Positions 2,066-13,512 are shown, numbered from the stretch's first letter. The stretch is DNA of 13,512 bases from a virus (IMGVR_UViG_2693429524_000013); one strand, 5' to 3'. Numbers and translations are program-made. The notes: generated from the sequence alone by a model not told the origin.

Positions 2066-3112
2066 TTATTTAGCCTTGGCTTTTGCCAGAGCAGCGGCGG
2101 CGGAGTTACTAACACTCACTTTAACCACAACTTCAGGCATCATGTTCATGAAAGCATAAGAGGATTCAATGAAGATTTCTCGTTTACCTCTGGACTCTTC
2201 CATATACATGAAAGCTTCACGTGCAGCGCCGTTTGCAAGCTTCAGGTTGCGAGCGCAAGGGCCGAAAAATTGAGTATAAACGCCCACCATATCGCCTAAC
2301 GCATGTGGCTGGAATTGTGGGACCAGATAAGCAGTATTCTCTGGCAGACTATCCATTTGCACCACACGCAGGGCTAAGCCCGGAATGCGGAAGGTCGGGA
2401 AGCCCGGCAGAATATCCTCAGGGAACATCAGGCCTTTGTCAGTGATATTTTGATTGCCGAACAACAGCACCTTACGGAGCAGTTCATCAGTCTGAATTGC
2501 AGCAAAGAGTTCAGCACGGCAGAACAGGGTGAAACCACGCAGAGCACGAACGACACCACGCTGTTTAACCTTGCTCAGTGCAACCAGGTCCTGCAGCTGT
2601 TTAAGGATATCTTTAGCTAAATCCACTTCTGAAGTGGTTTGCTGTGCGCCCAGCAGTTCGCACACATTCAGTTCTTTACCCTTGGTGAGGATAATTTTGT
2701 TCTCAAAGAGAGCAAGCTGGCGTGCTTCTTCGTGGGTCTGGCGTAAGCCTTCGCCAAGCTGAATAACACGACGAGCGGTTACAGACTCTAAATTCTCTTC
2801 GGAATCTTTGCCCGGAACGCGGATACCCTGCCAGTCAGAAGGATAAATAGCACTTGATGCGGCAGTGAATGCCATATCACCCGTGCCCGTTTCACGCTCA
2901 TCTGCGGTAATGGTCGCCATCTGTTCACCGTAGCGAGGATACTGACCGAAAGCAGATTGTTTCACCTGGCGAACTTTGTCATATTCAAATTTAAAGGTAT
3001 TGCACAGAGCAGTAGTGTTGAAGATATCCATTGCTGAAATAATCTGGTTATCCAGCGGGATGTCTTTAATCAGACCACACAGATCGCGAACTTCGAATTC
3101 TTTCTTAGCCAT
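2066..3112 (-). CDS. phage major capsid protein, lambda gpE-like
   Basis: Track ORF 2066..3118 begins at TTG; ATG at 3112 has AGGAGG 6 nt upstream. Size (~348 aa) fits gpE-type capsid proteins. Segment RRVIQLGEGLRQTHEEARQLALFENKIILTKGK resembles lambda gpE region RRRIIMQNMRDEELAIAQVEEMQAVSAVLKGK (alignment recalled from memory, not computed). Preceded by a ~110-aa gene, as D precedes E in lambda. Confidence 0.65.
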   Translation of the reverse strand: MAKKEFEVRDLCGLIKDIPLDNQIISAMDIFNTTALCNTFKFEYDKVRQVKQSAFGQYPRYGEQMATITADERETGTGDMAFTAASSAIYPSDWQGIRVPGKDSEENLESVTARRVIQLGEGLRQTHEEARQLALFENKIILTKGKELNVCELLGAQQTTSEVDLAKDILKQLQDLVALSKVKQRGVVRALRGFTLFCRAELFAAIQTDELLRKVLLFGNQNITDKGLMFPEDILPGFPTFRIPGLALRVVQMDSLPENTAYLVPQFQPHALGDMVGVYTQFFGPCARNLKLANGAAREAFMYMEESRGKREIFIESSYAFMNMMPEVVVKVSVSNSAAAALAKAKAK

Positions 3113-3123
3113 CTTCAACCTCC

Positions 3124-3459
3124 TTATTGTGCAACACGCAAATCGCCATTGCTGGCAGCGATAACAGCGGCTAAGCCGTCTTTATCCACGTAGGCCGGAT
3201 TGATGTAGCAACCTTTGTTCGCAACAACGATAAAAGCGTCACCAACCTCAGCACGTTCTACAACCAGCAGCGGAGTTTTATCTGTGTGCGTTGCTTTAAC
3301 GAAGGTCTCAACCTCGCCAGCCTCAGTAACCACAACAACAGTGCCAGCCGGAATCTCAGCTTTAACTTTGTTTTTAATCTCAACGTCGCGAATACTAAAT
3401 TGCTCATCTGCGGCGTATGAAATGATGTGTCCGCGTGTGCGGATAGTCATATCTCTCAT
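3124..3459 (-). CDS. putative head decoration / capsid accessory protein (111 aa)
   Basis: ORF 3124..3459 with ATG at 3459 and AGGTGA 4 nt upstream. Lies immediately upstream of the major capsid gene with a 11-nt gap. Size and position match decoration proteins; sequence does not resemble lambda gpD, so the call is positional. Confidence 0.4.
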   Translation of the reverse strand: MRDMTIRTRGHIISYAADEQFSIRDVEIKNKVKAEIPAGTVVVVTEAGEVETFVKATHTDKTPLLVVERAEVGDAFIVVANKGCYINPAYVDKDGLAAVIAASNGDLRVAQ

Positions 3460-3787
3460 TTGATCACCTGCGATTTAAATTAACTCCCCTCAAAGAGTTC
3501 CGGTATAACCTCTCAAACCGCGACAGGCTCGGGCCGAAAAGTTATGCCGGAAATCTAAAGGGAAATTGATACAAGGAAAGGGAGATAGCCCCGCACCGTC
3601 CAAGCGGGGGCTATTCCATATGGGGAAAACCAACAACAGTTGGCTGATAGTTCACAGTATGGTTACGGTTACTAGAGAGCACTATCACGAAAGGCACTCC
3701 CCCGAATCAGTTCAGGCTGCGGTCACATCAGCGGGGAAATACCTTTCGGGATAGCTACCCACACAGAAAACCCGCAAAAGAAAACTG

Positions 3788-3796
3788 TGTGGATAA
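3788..3796 (-). promoter_or_regulatory. perfect DnaA-box consensus TTATCCACA
   Basis: Plus strand reads TGTGGATAA, so the minus strand is TTATCCACA. Overlaps the 3' arm of an 8-bp inverted repeat CCACACAG (3759-3766) / CTGTGTGG (3785-3792). Single occurrence; within the leader of the head operon. Confidence 0.3.
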
Positions 3797-3943
3797 CTAG
3801 CCCAATAGGAGAATTAATCGACCACTCAACGATGATCAGGGTAGTGTTATTTATAAGGCGGCACCGCTACCTGGTCGCCGTTACTTTGGAGGAAAATACG
3901 GCAAATCAAGATCTTCTCACATTGATATTGACGCCATATGTAT

Positions 3944-3972
3944 ATTATATCAGTATTTACTCACATTGTCAA
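3944..3972 (-). promoter_or_regulatory. consensus sigma70 promoter reading leftward toward the head module
   Basis: On the minus strand: TTGACA (3972-3967), 17-bp spacer, TATAAT (3949-3944). Both hexamers are perfect consensus. Predicted TSS near 3937, giving a ~480-nt leader before the gene at 3459. Confidence 0.55.
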
Positions 3973-4195: not shown

Positions 4196-4213
4196 AAATC
4201 AACTTCTCGCAAA
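4196..4213 (+). promoter_or_regulatory. recurrent 18-nt leader motif AAATCAACTTCTCGCAAA, copy 1
   Basis: Exact 18-mer also at 4739-4756. In both cases it ends 11 nt before an ATG, with a purine-rich SD in between. Confidence 0.5.
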
Positions 4214-4738: not shown

Positions 4739-4756
4739 AAATCAACTTCTCGCAAA
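4739..4756 (+). promoter_or_regulatory. recurrent 18-nt leader motif, copy 2
   Basis: Identical to 4196-4213. Ends 11 nt before the ATG of the membrane-protein gene (4768). Confidence 0.5.
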
Positions 4757-4767
4757 GGGGTACCACT

Positions 4768-5289
4768 ATGTTATTCCAGAAAGACAAAGAATCAGTAAAT
4801 AAAAGGCTTTTTAAAGAACTGGTAAAAATGTTCTTTCAGTACACTGCAGCGTTTTTGATAGCCGGGCCTTGGTTAATGGCTATCTGTTTTTACCCTGCTA
4901 CCTTGTTTATTGGCAGTAGCAAGTTCGGCGATGGCCCGTTTCATGTGGATATTGGTTTTATAGATTCTCTCCTGATCCGTCCTATAAATGCTGTTCTCAA
5001 TGCTTTCTACTTCCCAACTAGTCTAGAGGGGTGGGCGGTAACCTGGGGTGTTTTAGGCTTAGCATATGTATATTGGTTGGTTGGCTTTTTGTGGGGTGCA
5101 ATCTGTGCTCTCCTCGATATTGATACAGGATCAAGCCGTAGGAGTAGTGGTAATAATAGCGGAGCGGGTGTATATGCACACGTAGGTACCAGAGGGGTAA
5201 GTATCACCGCAGGTACCCGATTCGCTGGCGGCTGGCTGAGTATAGGCAAACGCGGCGTTAGTTGGAGAAAAAGCAAAAAACTGTTCTGA
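4768..5289 (+). CDS. predicted membrane protein (173 aa)
   Basis: ORF 4768..5289. Recurrent motif ends 11 nt before the ATG, followed by AGGGG SD. At least two hydrophobic helices (FFQYTAAFLIAGPWLMAICFYPATLFIG and AVTWGVLGLAYVYWLVGFLWGAICALL) and a Gly/Ser/Arg-rich C-terminal tail. Followed by a strong intrinsic terminator. Confidence 0.6.
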   Translation: MLFQKDKESVNKRLFKELVKMFFQYTAAFLIAGPWLMAICFYPATLFIGSSKFGDGPFHVDIGFIDSLLIRPINAVLNAFYFPTSLEGWAVTWGVLGLAYVYWLVGFLWGAICALLDIDTGSSRRSSGNNSGAGVYAHVGTRGVSITAGTRFAGGWLSIGKRGVSWRKSKKLF

Positions 5290-5296
5290 CCTACCA

Positions 5297-5318
5297 GGGG
5301 GCCATCACGGCCCCTTTT
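5297..5318 (+). terminator. rho-independent terminator after the membrane-protein gene
   Basis: GC-rich 6-bp stem GGGGCC/GGCCCC with 5-nt loop, followed by TTTT (5315-5318). Lies 8 nt past the stop at 5289. Confidence 0.6.
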
Positions 5319-5404
5319 CTATTTCCAGTCGCTATAGCTCCTGAGTAATTCCACTCCCTGAGGTCGTGATCAATTCCACACCCTACCCCCTGATCAATTA
5401 ACCC

Positions 5405-5448
5405 CTATTTAATGGGTATTTAATGCCTATTTATTGATTTAATCCGTT
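5405..5448. repeat. AT-rich 11-bp tandem repeats (3-4 units)
   Basis: ctatttaatgg / gtatttaatgc / ctatttattga / tttaatccgtt in perfect tandem from 5405. Period is about one helical turn; candidate DNA-unwinding or bending element. Confidence 0.5.
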
Positions 5449-5514
5449 TTATGCCACAACCGCCCGGTTGACAGAGTAAGAGAGAGGGTGTAACCCTTTT
5501 TCGTAATACTAATG

Positions 5515-5530
5515 AAATCAATAAGTTAGC
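5515..5530 (+). repeat. 16-nt direct repeat AAATCAATAAGTTAGC, copy 1
   Basis: Exact 16-mer also at 13259-13274. Both copies are preceded 13-14 nt upstream by TAATA(C/T)T and lie shortly after a gene end. Confidence 0.5.
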
Positions 5531-6618
5531 TTAATAGGCCTTTTCTCTATTTTTGTCAAATTTAACATACCCTAAAAAACTGCAAAATCTGGCTGCAAGA
5601 TTATCTGCAGCTGGATTTCTTACACCTCATTTTGTGGTATCACCCTGACTAGTTTGTGCATAAATTGAACAGTTTTTAACATTTCCTCTTCACCTGGTAA
5701 CCACACAAAAAGCTAAAAACGAGGCACAGATAATCTTAGAGGCCTATTTTCTTGTTATCACTCTGGAAACGTCGTAGAAGTGATTTTGATGAAAGGCGAC
5801 CTACCCTATTACACCCCCATTTTTTGTTATCACAATTGCATCCTGTGTGGCTATATGGCTATGTGCTGAAAGCGGTCTCGGGTGTGGGTGTCAGAAATAT
5901 CCATTAGCGGTATTTGAGCTTATGGGTAACTCGTCTGAGGTGCCAGGCAGGCGCTCCCCTACCTCCCTTTTTTCTTCTAACAATTCTCAAATATCACACC
6001 ACTGCCCACCACGTTGCTATTATGTTAATTCTTAAGCTTTGCTGTATGTTGTGCACATTATTTATTCAGGTGGCTGTACGTAAATTCTGTGCCCACTGAT
6101 CATGATTTTTAAATCAGATTTTGTAGTGCGGTTTCTTAGTGCTGATAAGATCTATTATGTTAAATGCAATTTTCCCAACCCTTCAAATCAATGACTTACA
6201 TGTAAGCATGCACTAACACCACACACAGCACATTAGACGTATAGATGGCTATATCCCACATATTTGATTGTTTTGTAGTCATTCCCCTGATCATTTAACC
6301 AGTATAGTTTGTTATCTGCAGACCACAAAATCGGAATTTACATCTGATTAACATAATCTGTTAGCATGATCACCATTACCCACACAACAATAACCCCATG
6401 TAAGCCTCTTCAGGCAATTTATCGGCGTGTTGGTGTGAACAGTCTTTCATGTTCTTTATGTATCAGTTGTCCTGTGTGGTGATTTGGTGGACTGCCCCAG
6501 GGGCCATACTTATGATGCCCGGTCAACATAGCTGTTGATAAAATCAACGGGTGTTGACCTGCATATTTCCCACACATGAGAGGAAATCAGAGCAAAGAGA
6601 GAGGAGAGAGGTTTGTTA

Positions 6619-6668
6619 GTCACATATGGTGATTTGAGCTCATCTCAAACCTTCTACGAAGGCCTTTG
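6619..6668. repeat. tandem-hairpin element, copy A
   Basis: Hairpin 1: TTTGAG (6633-6638) / CTCAAA (6644-6649). CC linker. Hairpin 2: CCTTC (6650-6654) / GAAGG (6658-6662) with loop TAC. Flanked by TCACAT..GGTGATTTGAG and GGCCTTTG. Homologous to copy B. Confidence 0.5.
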
Positions 6669-6719
6669 CTAGTCAAAATCAAGTCACATTAGAGTCAAAT
6701 CAGATGCAATCAATCCCCC

Positions 6720-6778
6720 ACCTGTTGGGATTTCCCACATGTTCAACCATACACAGGAGCTAACCTGTTGGGATTTCC
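6720..6778. repeat. pair of 16-bp direct repeats ACCTGTTGGGATTTCC
   Basis: Identical 16-mers at 6720-6735 and 6763-6778 (43 bp apart). They share the ACCTGT core with the iterons immediately downstream. Confidence 0.6.
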
Positions 6779-6813
6779 TACAACCCCTTTCAGTCATACT
6801 CAGGCACCACACC

Positions 6814-7054
6814 CCGGTAAATATTTCCCTACTACCCCGGAGAATTTCTCCGCACTACCTGTAAAGAATTTTCACACCTGTGTGTTTATACAATCATACT
6901 CTCCTGTTTTGCAGTCATTGCACCCATGATACACAGCCCTAACCTGTAAAATATTTTTACTACCCCGCCAATAATACGGCCCATACCTGTAAAATATTTT
7001 TACTACTACCTGTCAAAATCTTTTACTACTACCTGTAAAAATATTTGACACTAA
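6814..7054. repeat. iteron array: six direct repeats of a ~21-23 bp unit
   Basis: Copies of CCTGTAAAATATTTTTACTAC-like units start at 6814, 6858, 6953, 6986, 7009 and 7032. The last three are exactly tandem at 23-bp spacing. Same orientation throughout; no ORF. Confidence 0.7.
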
Positions 7055-7101
7055 TAGATAAAGTAATAGACCACACAATAGATCCCCCTAACCCCCCAGG
7101 G

Positions 7102-7142
7102 GGGAATGGGGAGGGATCAGAGAGTGGGGAAGGTTTTCTAAG
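7102..7142. other. C6-A-G6 palindrome followed by G-tract-rich block
   Basis: CCCCCCAGGGGGG (7102-7114) followed by GGGGGGAATGGGGAGGGATCAGAGAGTGGGGAAGG. Four G-runs of 3 or more; possible G-quadruplex on the plus strand. Confidence 0.35.
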
Positions 7143-7245
7143 GGAAAAGCTTAACCCACAAATGAAAGCCTAAAGAGCATTAGCGACTCTTTAGGCAATC
7201 TGTGTGTGGGGTGACAATGTATTCCATACATGACACGTCACCCTG

Positions 7246-7316
7246 CTCACATGTGTGGTCCACTTCGTGGATTTGAGTTCACTCCGTAACTCAAACCCTC
7301 TACGAGGGCCTTGTGT
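7246..7316. repeat. tandem-hairpin element, copy B
   Basis: Hairpin 1: TTTGAGTT (7272-7279) / AACTCAAA (7288-7295). CC linker. Hairpin 2: CCCTC (7296-7300) / GAGGG (7304-7308) with loop TAC. Differs from copy A by a T-A to C-G double change that keeps the pair. Confidence 0.5.
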
Positions 7317-7410
7317 GGGGAGCGTAGTGCGATAGCACGTAGCTATATAATGTGGAGTCCGGATAAGAGACTTCTGTTTCCAATCCGGACCGTTTAAGCG
7401 AGTGGTTTCT

Positions 7411-7436
7411 CGCGCGCGTGCACGCACACATATATA
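7411..7436. other. 26-nt perfect alternating pyrimidine-purine tract (Z-DNA-prone)
   Basis: CGCGCGCGTGCACGCACACATATATA alternates pyrimidine/purine without a break for 26 nt. Read directly from the sequence. Confidence 0.5.
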
Positions 7437-7616
7437 AAGGATACACTCATAAATCGAAAATAAGGCCCCTAAATGGCCTTCTGGCTGCATTAACTAGTTT
7501 GAGTAGTGTAATTGCATTACCTGATGCTCAAATCGCGTTGTAGGGCCTCTTATGATGTTTGAGTTTAACACCCTCCAAAGTTTTAACAAAAAGTGCTCTC
7601 CCTCCATTGTGGGCCA

Positions 7617-7646
7617 TTGACAATCTTATTGCATAAATGCTATAAG
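7617..7646 (+). promoter_or_regulatory. possible second plus-strand promoter
   Basis: TTGACA (7617-7622), 18-bp spacer, TATAAG (7641-7646). Motif CCATTGACAAT recurs at 7745 within a perfect palindrome ATTGACAA-ttgg-TTGTCAAT (7746-7765). Confidence 0.3.
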
Positions 7647-7936
7647 TTATTCTGTTTTTGACACGGTAGGGGACATTAATAATGCTTACCCCTTTGCTGT
7701 GGACTTGTTTGTACCTATAGCTCGCCTAAATGATAATGATTCCCATTGACAATTGGTTGTCAATATGATAAGATTATAGATAGTGGGAGAAACAGATCCG
7801 GAGGTCAACGTGGAACTGAGCGACGCTATAGCGATCATCAACCTGGCTGTAATGTGGTGCGGTGTTGCCTACATAGCCGGAGTAACTGCAATCGACAACC
7901 TTGAAGAAAAAATGATAGATAAATACAAAAAGATTG

Positions 7937-7965
7937 TTGACAATCTCGCAAATAGCTGATAAAAT
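7937..7965 (+). promoter_or_regulatory. sigma70 promoter for the plus-strand operon
   Basis: TTGACA (7937-7942), 17-bp spacer, TAAAAT (7960-7965). The -35 sits in an imperfect palindrome GATTGTTGACAATC. About 120 nt upstream of the first gene (8088). Confidence 0.5.
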
Positions 7966-8016
7966 ATAAAGCATAGGGTAATTCTCATCATAGTGAATTT
8001 TCCTTTAATGAACTGG

Positions 8017-8044
8017 CGGGAGCTATTAGTTCCCGTTTCTTTTT
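8017..8044 (+). terminator. terminator-like hairpin in the leader of the plus-strand operon
   Basis: CGGGA (8017-8021), 9-nt loop, TCCCG (8031-8035), then TTTCTTTTT (8036-8044). Lies between the promoter at 7937-7965 and the first gene. Short stem, so modest confidence. Confidence 0.35.
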
Positions 8045-9387: not shown

Positions 9388-9478
9388 TACCCCCAAATAA
9401 ACCAACAAACTACTAAATAAACTAATTACTAGAACTAGATTGATTGCCCTGATCTTTTAAACGTTCGGAGAATTAATC

Positions 9479-9964
9479 ATGTTCAAATCTGATCTTTCTG
9501 ATTCCCAATTTGAAAAACTGGTAGCACTGCAGAAATACCTCCCCAGTGATGATCAACCAACACGACAGGCCAAACACTTATTAGTCGAGGGCTTTACCCC
9601 TGAATTCGTTGCGGAATATACAGGCGTTAAACTTGAGAAAGTCCAAAAACTATATAATGAGTCCTGGAATCCACGGTGTCGAGTTCCCCTCAGTGTCTAT
9701 AACGACATAGATAGAGATAAAAATGTCTTCGAAGATCGCCGCCGCAAATCTCTTTTAATGTGGAATTGTGGGATGAATATTGAAGAGATAGCAAAAGAAT
9801 TAAAAGTAACCTGCTTTCATATATGGGGCTTGTTGAGCGACCTCCTGCCACGTAAGGAGCTTAATCAACGTTTGCCTAAGCCCGGTAGTCGTGCTTATCG
9901 CGAATTTATATTCATCTACCGCCGCCATAGCAATAAAGTCCGGAAAGCAATGCAGCGCAAATAG
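9479..9964 (+). CDS. putative DNA-binding regulator (161 aa)
   Basis: ORF 9479..9964 with GGAG SD. Two HTH-like segments (PEFVAEYTGVKLEKVQKLYNE and MNIEEIAKELKVTCFHIWGLL). Basic C-terminus. Confidence 0.55.
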   Translation: MFKSDLSDSQFEKLVALQKYLPSDDQPTRQAKHLLVEGFTPEFVAEYTGVKLEKVQKLYNESWNPRCRVPLSVYNDIDRDKNVFEDRRRKSLLMWNCGMNIEEIAKELKVTCFHIWGLLSDLLPRKELNQRLPKPGSRAYREFIFIYRRHSNKVRKAMQRK

Positions 9965-13247: not shown

Positions 13248-13258
13248 TATTGTGATCT

Positions 13259-13274
13259 AAATCAATAAGTTAGC
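13259..13274 (+). repeat. 16-nt direct repeat AAATCAATAAGTTAGC, copy 2
   Basis: Identical to 5515-5530. Begins 12 nt after the tape-measure stop codon. Confidence 0.5.
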
Positions 13275-13296
13275 CTGACCGGATAAACTCCAGGCA

Positions 13297-13328
13297 AGAA
13301 AAAAGCCCCTAAGTGTTAACAAAGGGGC
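13297..13328 (-). terminator. terminator-like hairpin, minus-strand orientation
   Basis: GCCCCT (13305-13310) / AGGGGC (13323-13328) with 12-nt loop. Preceded on plus strand by a run of six A (13299-13304), so on the minus strand the hairpin is followed by six T. Would terminate a leftward transcript from beyond the window end; could also weakly terminate the tape-measure operon. Confidence 0.35.
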
Positions 13329-13361
13329 TCTTCTCCGGTATCCTTTTGATGCGGGGCAAAA

Positions 13362-13405
13362 CCTGCTAACAAAAATCAACCTCTCGCGAGACTAATGTTA
13401 GCAGG
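13362..13405. repeat. 10-bp inverted repeat enclosing a variant of the recurrent motif
   Basis: CCTGCTAACA (13362-13371) / TGTTAGCAGG (13396-13405) flank a 24-nt loop containing AAATCAACCTCTCGCGAG (13373-13390). The loop itself holds the perfect palindrome TCTCGCGAGA (13382-13391). Confidence 0.5.
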
Positions 13406-13512
13406 TTGCCGGAAGGTAAGTCAACTCCGGTCTATAAACCTTAAAGCGACTATAAAATTGCCCCGCCAATTGTGATGATCCGACCTTTGAGGCGGGTCCG
13501 GTGCCCAGGGGG

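Follow-up and report, generated by a model that had tools for sequence, protein, structure and literature searches.

In a family of satellite-like plasmids of E. coli, the leader of the head genes, transcribed from a promoter called here P_head, is on balance probably an attenuated, structured RNA in which the SD of the first gene is masked, and which would also act in trans, through its first 35 nt, as an antisense RNA against a helper phage. The window, that is the whole stretch of 13,512 nt analysed, is a complete circular E. coli plasmid of ~13.5 kb, the ends of which join when compared with a relative. End-to-end alignment was obtained with five plasmids of PLSDB and seven of RefSeq, all from E. 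coli, 13.2-13.7 kb in size and typed as non-mobilizable, and the family comprises more than 30 E. coli plasmids or contigs of human, cattle, pig and chicken origin, from several continents. One record (NZ_CP043822.1, 39.6 kb) holds three plasmid copies, these being either a true trimer or a concatemer made by the assembly.

The minus-strand operon located behind P_head encodes a 111-aa protein, the major capsid protein, an 86-aa protein, a Dit-like tail-tube initiator and a neck/tail-completion protein. On the plus strand lie the genes of an HTH_7 protein, a replication initiator and a tape-measure protein. The first two genes of the operon are:

3124-3459, minus strand: first head gene, 111 aa, in the decoration-protein position; relatives have a small gene followed by a Phage_cap_E capsid gene
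2066-3118, minus strand: major capsid protein gene (phrog_29, E = 8.6e-21), which carries this annotation in relatives as well

This lineage of capsid proteins is rare, with only 29 cluster representatives among 1.84 billion proteins, and a scan of GTDB genomes returned no capsid relatives. Terminase, portal, protease and scaffold genes were not recognised in the plasmid. The Dit-like and neck proteins are 51% and 45% identical, respectively, to proteins of rV5-like Vequintavirus myophages. A set of structural genes devoid of terminase, portal and protease, joined to rV5-like tail homologues, makes the plasmid look like a satellite. Its gene content fits this status, as do the 45-51% identity to helper tail proteins and the occurrence of shared DNA patches. 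The plasmid is thus probably an undescribed satellite of rV5-like virulent phages, the link to the helper being drawn from homology. In the literature, no paper was found either on rV5 satellites or on the 13-kb plasmid family.

The region upstream of the head genes was compared in 32 sequences, which form subfamily A (the window and 21 others) and subfamily B (10 sequences). The two subfamilies share 82% capsid identity and ~70% DNA identity. The promoter is located as follows:

3944-3972, minus strand: P_head, extended -10 sigma70 promoter (-35 TTGACA at 3972-3967, 17-nt spacer, TGn at 3952-3950, -10 TATAAT at 3949-3944)

The original prediction had pointed to a minus-strand promoter in which TTGACA, a 17-bp spacer and TATAAT are all perfect. 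Inspection confirmed this, and added a TG at 3952-3951, upstream of the TATAAT, which makes the -10 an extended one. P_head is the sole 12/12 sigma70 match found by the promoter scan across the 13.5-kb window; according to our own estimate, which assumes a uniform base composition, ~0.005-0.01 such sites are expected by chance per 13.5 kb, both strands included. The TTGACA, the 17-nt spacer and the TG are unchanged in 32 of 32 relatives, and the -10 is either TATAAT or TAAAAT. A distant relative (L014), the capsid protein of which is 31% identical, features TTGACA-17-TAATAT plus the TG. P_head has therefore the make-up of a sigma70 promoter with an extended -10, and is predicted to be active. 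The sequence upstream of it is invariant as well, and includes the dyad ATCTATCA...TGATAGAT at 4101-4071. Transcription is predicted to start at ~3937-3939, and the 111-aa gene opens with an ATG at 3459. The leader of ~480 nt ahead of the head genes that had been proposed is thus retained.

A consensus sigma70 promoter had been regarded as unusual for a phage late operon. This premise fails, because in the helper lineage it is ordinary for structural genes to be preceded by strong sigma70 promoters. Promoters of the TTGACA/TGnTAAAATA type are found in rV5-like phages in intergenic regions throughout their own structural module, and one of them reads TTGACAAT-N14-TGGTAAAATA. The TTGACA(AT)-17-TGnTAAAATA design is common to helper and plasmid (one helper promoter is TTGACAATgcaccataatcaTGGTAAAATA), but the helper promoters sit 30-60 nt from their genes, and lack a long leader. 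In the plasmid, the same design recurs at 7617, 7746 and 7937 on the plus strand. The sites at 7617-7645 and 7745-7775 are two more TTGACAAT...TGn promoters; the palindrome ATTGACAATTGGTTGTCAAT, at 7745-7764, carries promoter-like sites on both strands, and TTGACAAT occurs in five copies in the window vs 0.75 expected. In the candidate helper, the phage CarlMeissner, the gene bas48_0056 (L030 3526-4503) is annotated as an anti-sigma factor. Such a factor might explain why the TGn of the extended -10 has been kept in promoters of both helper and satellite, and the invariant TG would make P_head robust to it.

The leader is non-coding. ATG-started ORFs of at least 20 aa are missing from its ~480 nt, and 1-nt indels are present in the leader region of relatives; a coding sequence was rejected on these two observations. 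Three inverted repeats are found in the leader. The first (3742-3766 / 3785-3809) spans 25 nt, is 80% complementary and has a 15-bp perfect core; the second (3682-3704 / 3732-3754) spans 23 nt and is 83% complementary; the third (3585-3592 / 3607-3614) is a perfect 8-nt repeat reaching ~10 bp. Two 8-bp inverted repeats (3759-3792 and 3588-3618) had been noticed at the outset; both are present and larger than stated, and the 3682-3704 / 3732-3754 repeat comes in addition, having been absent from that description. The main segments of the RNA are:

3665-3892, minus strand: structured core of the leader RNA, conserved, with very little variation in subfamily A and islands common to subfamily B
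3742-3809, minus strand: long hairpin I1, with a 15-bp perfect core, containing the 'DnaA box' TTATCCACA at 3796-3788
3682-3754, minus strand: long hairpin I2 (A4 columns 270-288 with 341-358), which has the best covariation support
3862-3874, minus strand: CCAGGTAGCGGTG, the longest stretch without any difference between subfamilies A and B, forming the loop of a hairpin the stem of which covaries (GGCG/CGCC vs CCGCC/GGCGG)

The core (3892-3665) shows an identity of 0.985-0.993 within subfamily A, vs 0.86-0.95 for the adjoining capsid genes. The predicted fold of the leader has an energy of -174 kcal/mol (z = -6.6 vs shuffled sequence). When subfamilies A and B are compared over 63 predicted pairs, both partners are changed in 11 and one partner in 20, and no pair is broken, while slid controls gave 0-3 double changes and ~50% pairing; all of this covariation comes from one split in the phylogeny, and the same sequences served to predict the structure. 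In the I2 helix (3682-3704/3732-3754) the two subfamilies differ by three compensatory and two wobble changes, with no broken pair. Variation of the same kind is found inside subfamily A, where some members have CCAAC/GTTGG and others CCGAC/GTCGG. By these measures the leader qualifies, at the level of sequence, as a structured non-coding RNA. Several of its segments keep two alternative, mutually exclusive partners. As an example, GGGUAG at 3760-3755 is predicted to pair either with CUACCC at 3844-3839 or with UUAUCC. The conservation of alternative pairings hints at a switch, short of proof.

A scan of Rfam 15, which includes C4/CI antisense RNA, RNAI and ctRNAs, returned nothing in 3459-3972 at E <= 1. 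The core motif had no match in IMG/VR, and the core resembles nothing in the phage collection; a metagenome scan retrieved only four further members, all of the same plasmid family. The leader of the distant relative L014 cannot be aligned, and was compared by architecture alone: the gene order is the same, the leader spans ~630 nt, and terminator-like hairpins are present.

Conservation of this degree could alternatively be due to constraints acting on DNA. The conserved block might be a cos or pac site, an element of a DnaA-dependent origin, or a set of repressor operators keeping the promoter off. The plasmid needs a packaging signal, since it lacks a terminase; the box TTATCCACA, a perfect DnaA-box consensus, lies at 3796-3788 on the minus strand, and both the sequence and the dyad upstream of the promoter are invariant. 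We regard this as a very unlikely account of the block as a whole, because the compensatory changes keep helices, which argues for base pairing and not for protein-DNA contacts. The DnaA box announced in the original prediction at 3788-3796 does exist, but finds no support as a functional site, being one strand of the 15-bp RNA hairpin and reading GATATCTACCC in subfamily B. DnaA-box-like 9-mers with at most one mismatch number 12 in the window, vs 3.85 expected (0 of 200 shuffles reached this count), and are scattered (e.g. at 3182, 4944, 8213 and 10273). With a single perfect box, dispersed one-mismatch boxes and no box in subfamily B, a DnaA-dependent origin was rejected. The sequence CGGCGACC at 3880-3873 presumably resembles part of the lambda cohesive end, but a cos site was similarly discarded, no supporting similarity being found in any phage; for packaging, better candidates are the regions 13252-13512 plus 1-686 and 5972-5996. 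The same holds for the repeated words that had been reported. The word CAATGTGAG (CTCACATTG on the plus strand) has exactly two copies in the window, at 3960-3968 and 3916-3924, vs 0.14 expected, a count reached by 1 of 200 shuffles. The two CTCACATTG copies do not stay alike among relatives, diverging independently, and one belongs to the phage-derived module described below; the words are real, but their reading as an operator pair was rejected. Repression of the promoter remains in any case compatible with functions exerted by the RNA.

Some features located elsewhere in the plasmid deserve mention in their own right. A stretch including the neck gene and the convergent intergenic region following the tape-measure gene (13252-13512 plus 1-686) is 89-100% identical in subfamilies A and B, vs ~70% elsewhere. 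No gene is annotated in any relative in the ~2.4 kb corresponding to window positions 5290-7700. Here, the 25 nt at 5972-5996 (TTCTTCTAACAATTCTCAAATATCA), present in both plasmid subfamilies, match at 24 of 25 positions CarlMeissner 93252-93276, which lies in the helper's own 2.5-kb gene-free region; the patch is a candidate for a hijacked cis site, either an origin or a packaging signal. Patches of 62 nt and 49 nt, absent from the window, were found in two relatives (L001 7026-7086; L015 6225-6286 and 6432-6480). They match CarlMeissner 134292-134353 and 134152-134200, two sites close to the phage tRNA cluster, with 85-92% identity, and compensatory differences (GCTGCC/GGCAGC vs ACCGAC/GTCGGT) suggest a structured RNA common to phage and satellite. 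An exact 14-nt repeat, CAACTTCTCGCAAA, occurs at 4200-4213 and 4743-4756 (0.01 expected), each copy being located just upstream of an ORF start, in one case that of a ~40-aa ORF called in relatives, in the other that of a 173-aa ORF at 4768. The repeat may be a shared translational or transcriptional operator.

The distal part of the leader carries the signals which plausibly restrain the head genes:

3582-3618, minus strand: terminator-position hairpin (AUAGCCCCGC...GCGGGGCUAU), followed by the weak U tract CUCCCUUUCCUU
3463-3468, minus strand: GGUGAU, SD of the 111-aa D-like gene (ATG at 3459)
3831-3838, minus strand: UGAUCAUC, predicted anti-SD of subfamily A

In the window, the hairpin (3618-3582) has a 10-bp GC-rich stem, and its tail, CUCCCUUUCCUU, failed the terminator scan. 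The aligned hairpin of subfamily B passes as a canonical intrinsic terminator, its 15 pairs being followed by a U7-9 tract. A compensatory change is found at columns 430/455 of A4. Given the poor U tract CUCCCUUUCCUU, termination in the window may be partial. Terminator-like hairpins located 140-200 nt before the D-like gene are present in L013 and L014 as well. Since no promoter-like site was detected by the promoter scan between the hairpin and the 111-aa gene, the head genes would depend on read-through. In full-length leaders of both subfamilies the SD is predicted to be paired (p ~0.6-0.7) with an upstream AUCAUC; this anti-SD is provided by UGAUCAUC in subfamily A, and is placed elsewhere in subfamily B. 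A promoter followed by a terminator is found a second time in the plasmid. The strong promoter at 7937 (TTGACA-17-TAAAAT with TG, near-consensus) is followed by an intrinsic terminator at 8015-8037, upstream of the first gene of the replication operon (8088), and the layout is found also in subfamily B (L015, 5710 to 5606-5589). A further complementarity involves the leader sequence GAUUAAUUCUCC, at 3808-3819 on the minus strand, which is perfectly complementary to the SD and spacer of the 161-aa gene, GGAGAATTAATCatg, at 9467-9481 on the plus strand. Its E value is 0.31, and the match may be due to chance.

The beginning of the leader is of a different nature:

3904-3938, minus strand: 5' module of the leader RNA, ~+1 to +35, antisense to the rV5-like gene following the major capsid gene

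The first ~35 transcribed nt are hypervariable, with indels, among otherwise near-identical plasmids, and the pace of change of the module exceeds that of the adjoining core more than 30-fold. In the window it is identical at 32 of 35 positions (91%) to the antisense strand of CarlMeissner 7561-7595. Searches of the region, of the whole window and of the capsid gene against phages with blastn/tblastn at default thresholds gave no match, and the 35-nt similarity became visible only with a less strict E-value limit; for the whole phage collection the match of the leader has an E value of 7e-4, and the 71 records matched are all rV5-like. No further Vequintavirus match emerged when all the non-coding plasmid DNA, a 4.9-kb query, was used. 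The phage gene lies on the strand opposite to the leader RNA, and the RNA is therefore antisense to it. The target is a 281-aa gene (phrog_3259; bas48_0009 in CarlMeissner) located directly after the phage major capsid gene, the C-terminal match of which is a 'minor head protein inhibitor of protease'. The site itself is found in the 3' portion of this coding region, and not at a ribosome-binding site. Two of the three mismatches are G.U-compatible, so that 34 of 35 positions can pair, in a duplex made of 16 bp, one mismatch and 18 bp. The duplex of module and target is predicted at -58 kcal/mol, vs -25 +/- 2.8 for shuffles, and is the best that the module can form anywhere in the complete 137.6-kb helper genome (-53.8 vs ~-28). 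No significant self-target of the leader was found elsewhere in the plasmid.

The distribution of this complementarity is uneven. Pairing to the helper is limited to variants V1-V3, that is to 9 of the 22 subfamily-A sequences, window included. The modules of V4-V8 resemble shorter, diverged forms of the same module, and the module of subfamily B is unrelated and 70 nt long. Searches of the phage collection, of one complete helper genome and of IMG/VR revealed no target for the modules of V4-V8, of subfamily B and of L014. In the phage collection the modules of V4, subfamily B and L014 gave chance-level matches in unrelated phages only; exact 20-21-mers from the V4, V6 and B modules are absent from IMG/VR, and a duplex scan of the V4 module against the whole helper genome gave values within the shuffle range. 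Extended complementarity carried by the transcribed strand, as a trans-acting antisense RNA requires, is consequently found in V1-V3 only. Two explanations remain for the other variants: the V4-V8 and B modules may address unsequenced helpers, or the patch is a recombination scar.

The second explanation belongs to a broader alternative, less probable than a trans-acting RNA yet to be taken seriously, according to which the leader acts purely in cis, by attenuation and masking, and the 35-nt similarity to the phage is a relic of recombination, without a role in trans. The complementarity is missing from more than half of the family, and the site targeted is internal to a coding region, well beyond its start. 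Other short patches of DNA are common to satellites and helper, so exchange does occur, which gives the scar some support. A scar, in turn, fits poorly with a patch which starts at the predicted +1 and runs opposite to the shared gene order (the plasmid minus strand corresponds to the phage plus strand for the Dit and TMP genes). The module is moreover far closer to the phage (91%) than any homologous plasmid gene, its mismatches are mostly G.U-compatible, and its pace of change is unlike that of an inert spacer lying beside a constrained RNA.

The antisense leader acting both in cis and in trans is thus the reading that we prefer. It is built on what sequence analysis provides, namely the promoter and its conservation, the covarying structure, the position of the terminator, and the complementarity to the helper. 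P_head, a promoter of constitutive type, would transcribe a conserved, highly structured non-coding RNA. Most transcripts would end at the conserved hairpin located ~345 nt downstream, a weaker terminator in the window than in subfamily B. Transcripts reading through it would carry the capsid genes, with the ribosome-binding site of the first gene masked by the upstream AUCAUC. Between them, termination hairpin and masking would throttle a strong promoter after initiation. The first 35 nt would form a near-perfect duplex with a helper late mRNA, inside the gene following the major capsid gene. Because the duplex is near-perfect, the abundant short RNA would probably act in trans against the head module of the helper, and a shift towards read-through could take place upon infection. 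The original prediction had left the choice between an attenuated strong promoter and a leader RNA with a function of its own. Both fit the covarying structure, the terminator hairpin, the masking of the SD and the helper-antisense 5' end, and the last of these, a putative antisense module supported by sequence, lies outside what had been described.

Capsid genes which lie beyond both a terminator-position hairpin and an SD predicted to be masked, and for which no internal promoter was detected, could also be waiting for a signal. The late mRNA of the helper would then pair with the 5' module and refold the leader, either suppressing termination or unmasking the ribosome-binding site, so that capsid genes are turned on in infected cells only. 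The predicted fold pairs the 5' module with core nucleotides lying beside the anti-SD, and several mutually exclusive alternative pairings are conserved. We consider this unlikely, since no fold calculation shows a release of terminator or SD upon sequestration of the 5' module, and the core segment set free seems to favour the long-range anti-SD helix instead. Variants devoid of complementarity would moreover have no inducer, and the control by an RNA in trans of a co-transcriptional decision taken 345 nt downstream is kinetically demanding. Just as unlikely is a riboregulator made of guide and scaffold, in which a fast-evolving 5' 'address', by pairing with a helper late mRNA, damages the expression of helper head genes and at the same time senses the helper, switching the conserved scaffold from a terminating fold with a masked SD to read-through and capsid translation.

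The 13-kb plasmids form an apparently undescribed family, and although typed as 'non-mobilizable', would spread by hijacking virulent phages. Their layout (invariant promoter, phage-antisense module, conserved scaffold, terminator), with a swappable module of 35 nt, is a design easily tested, which could be re-targeted.

Similar arrangements are known. In lambda, the strong constitutive promoter PR' is followed by the terminator tR'; a short RNA, 6S, is made, and late and head genes need read-through, which is ensured by Q. The logic is alike, in that a promoter and a candidate terminator precede head genes which would be expressed by read-through. The leader described here is twice as long, strongly structured and conserved, and the helper lineage is not lambdoid; no Q-like family was found in Pfam/PHROG scans of the main ORFs of the plasmid, and no Q-binding element was identified. 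The CI RNA of P4 and the C4 antisense RNAs of P1/P7 (RF01695) act on their own transcripts through repeated target sites. These systems, too, feature a satellite or a phage-plasmid, a constitutive promoter, an RNA derived from a leader, and pairing coupled to premature termination. The leader analysed here differs from them because it has no Rfam match (E <= 1) and no significant self-target in the plasmid. By sequence or covariance model it is not a member of the SviR, lambda 6S or P4 CI kinds.

The system nearest in function is plausibly SviR, a small RNA of the Vibrio cholerae satellite PLE, which pairs with helper transcripts, including that of a putative structural protein; infection induces SviR, which is a stand-alone trans-acting sRNA and is kept throughout the satellite family (Dunham, Angermeyer & Seed, bioRxiv 10.1101/2022.04.08.487710). 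In both cases an RNA of a satellite of a virulent phage is complementary to a helper transcript, here as deduced from sequence alone. The two RNAs have no relation in sequence or structure. Unlike SviR, the leader RNA has a promoter of constitutive type, spans ~350 nt, doubles as the leader of the capsid operon, and carries the module in part of the family. If it works as proposed, it would be the second known case, after SviR of PLE, of a satellite using an RNA against its helper, and the first such RNA in E. coli, hosted by a plasmid and aimed at rV5-like phages, which are widely used therapeutic candidates.
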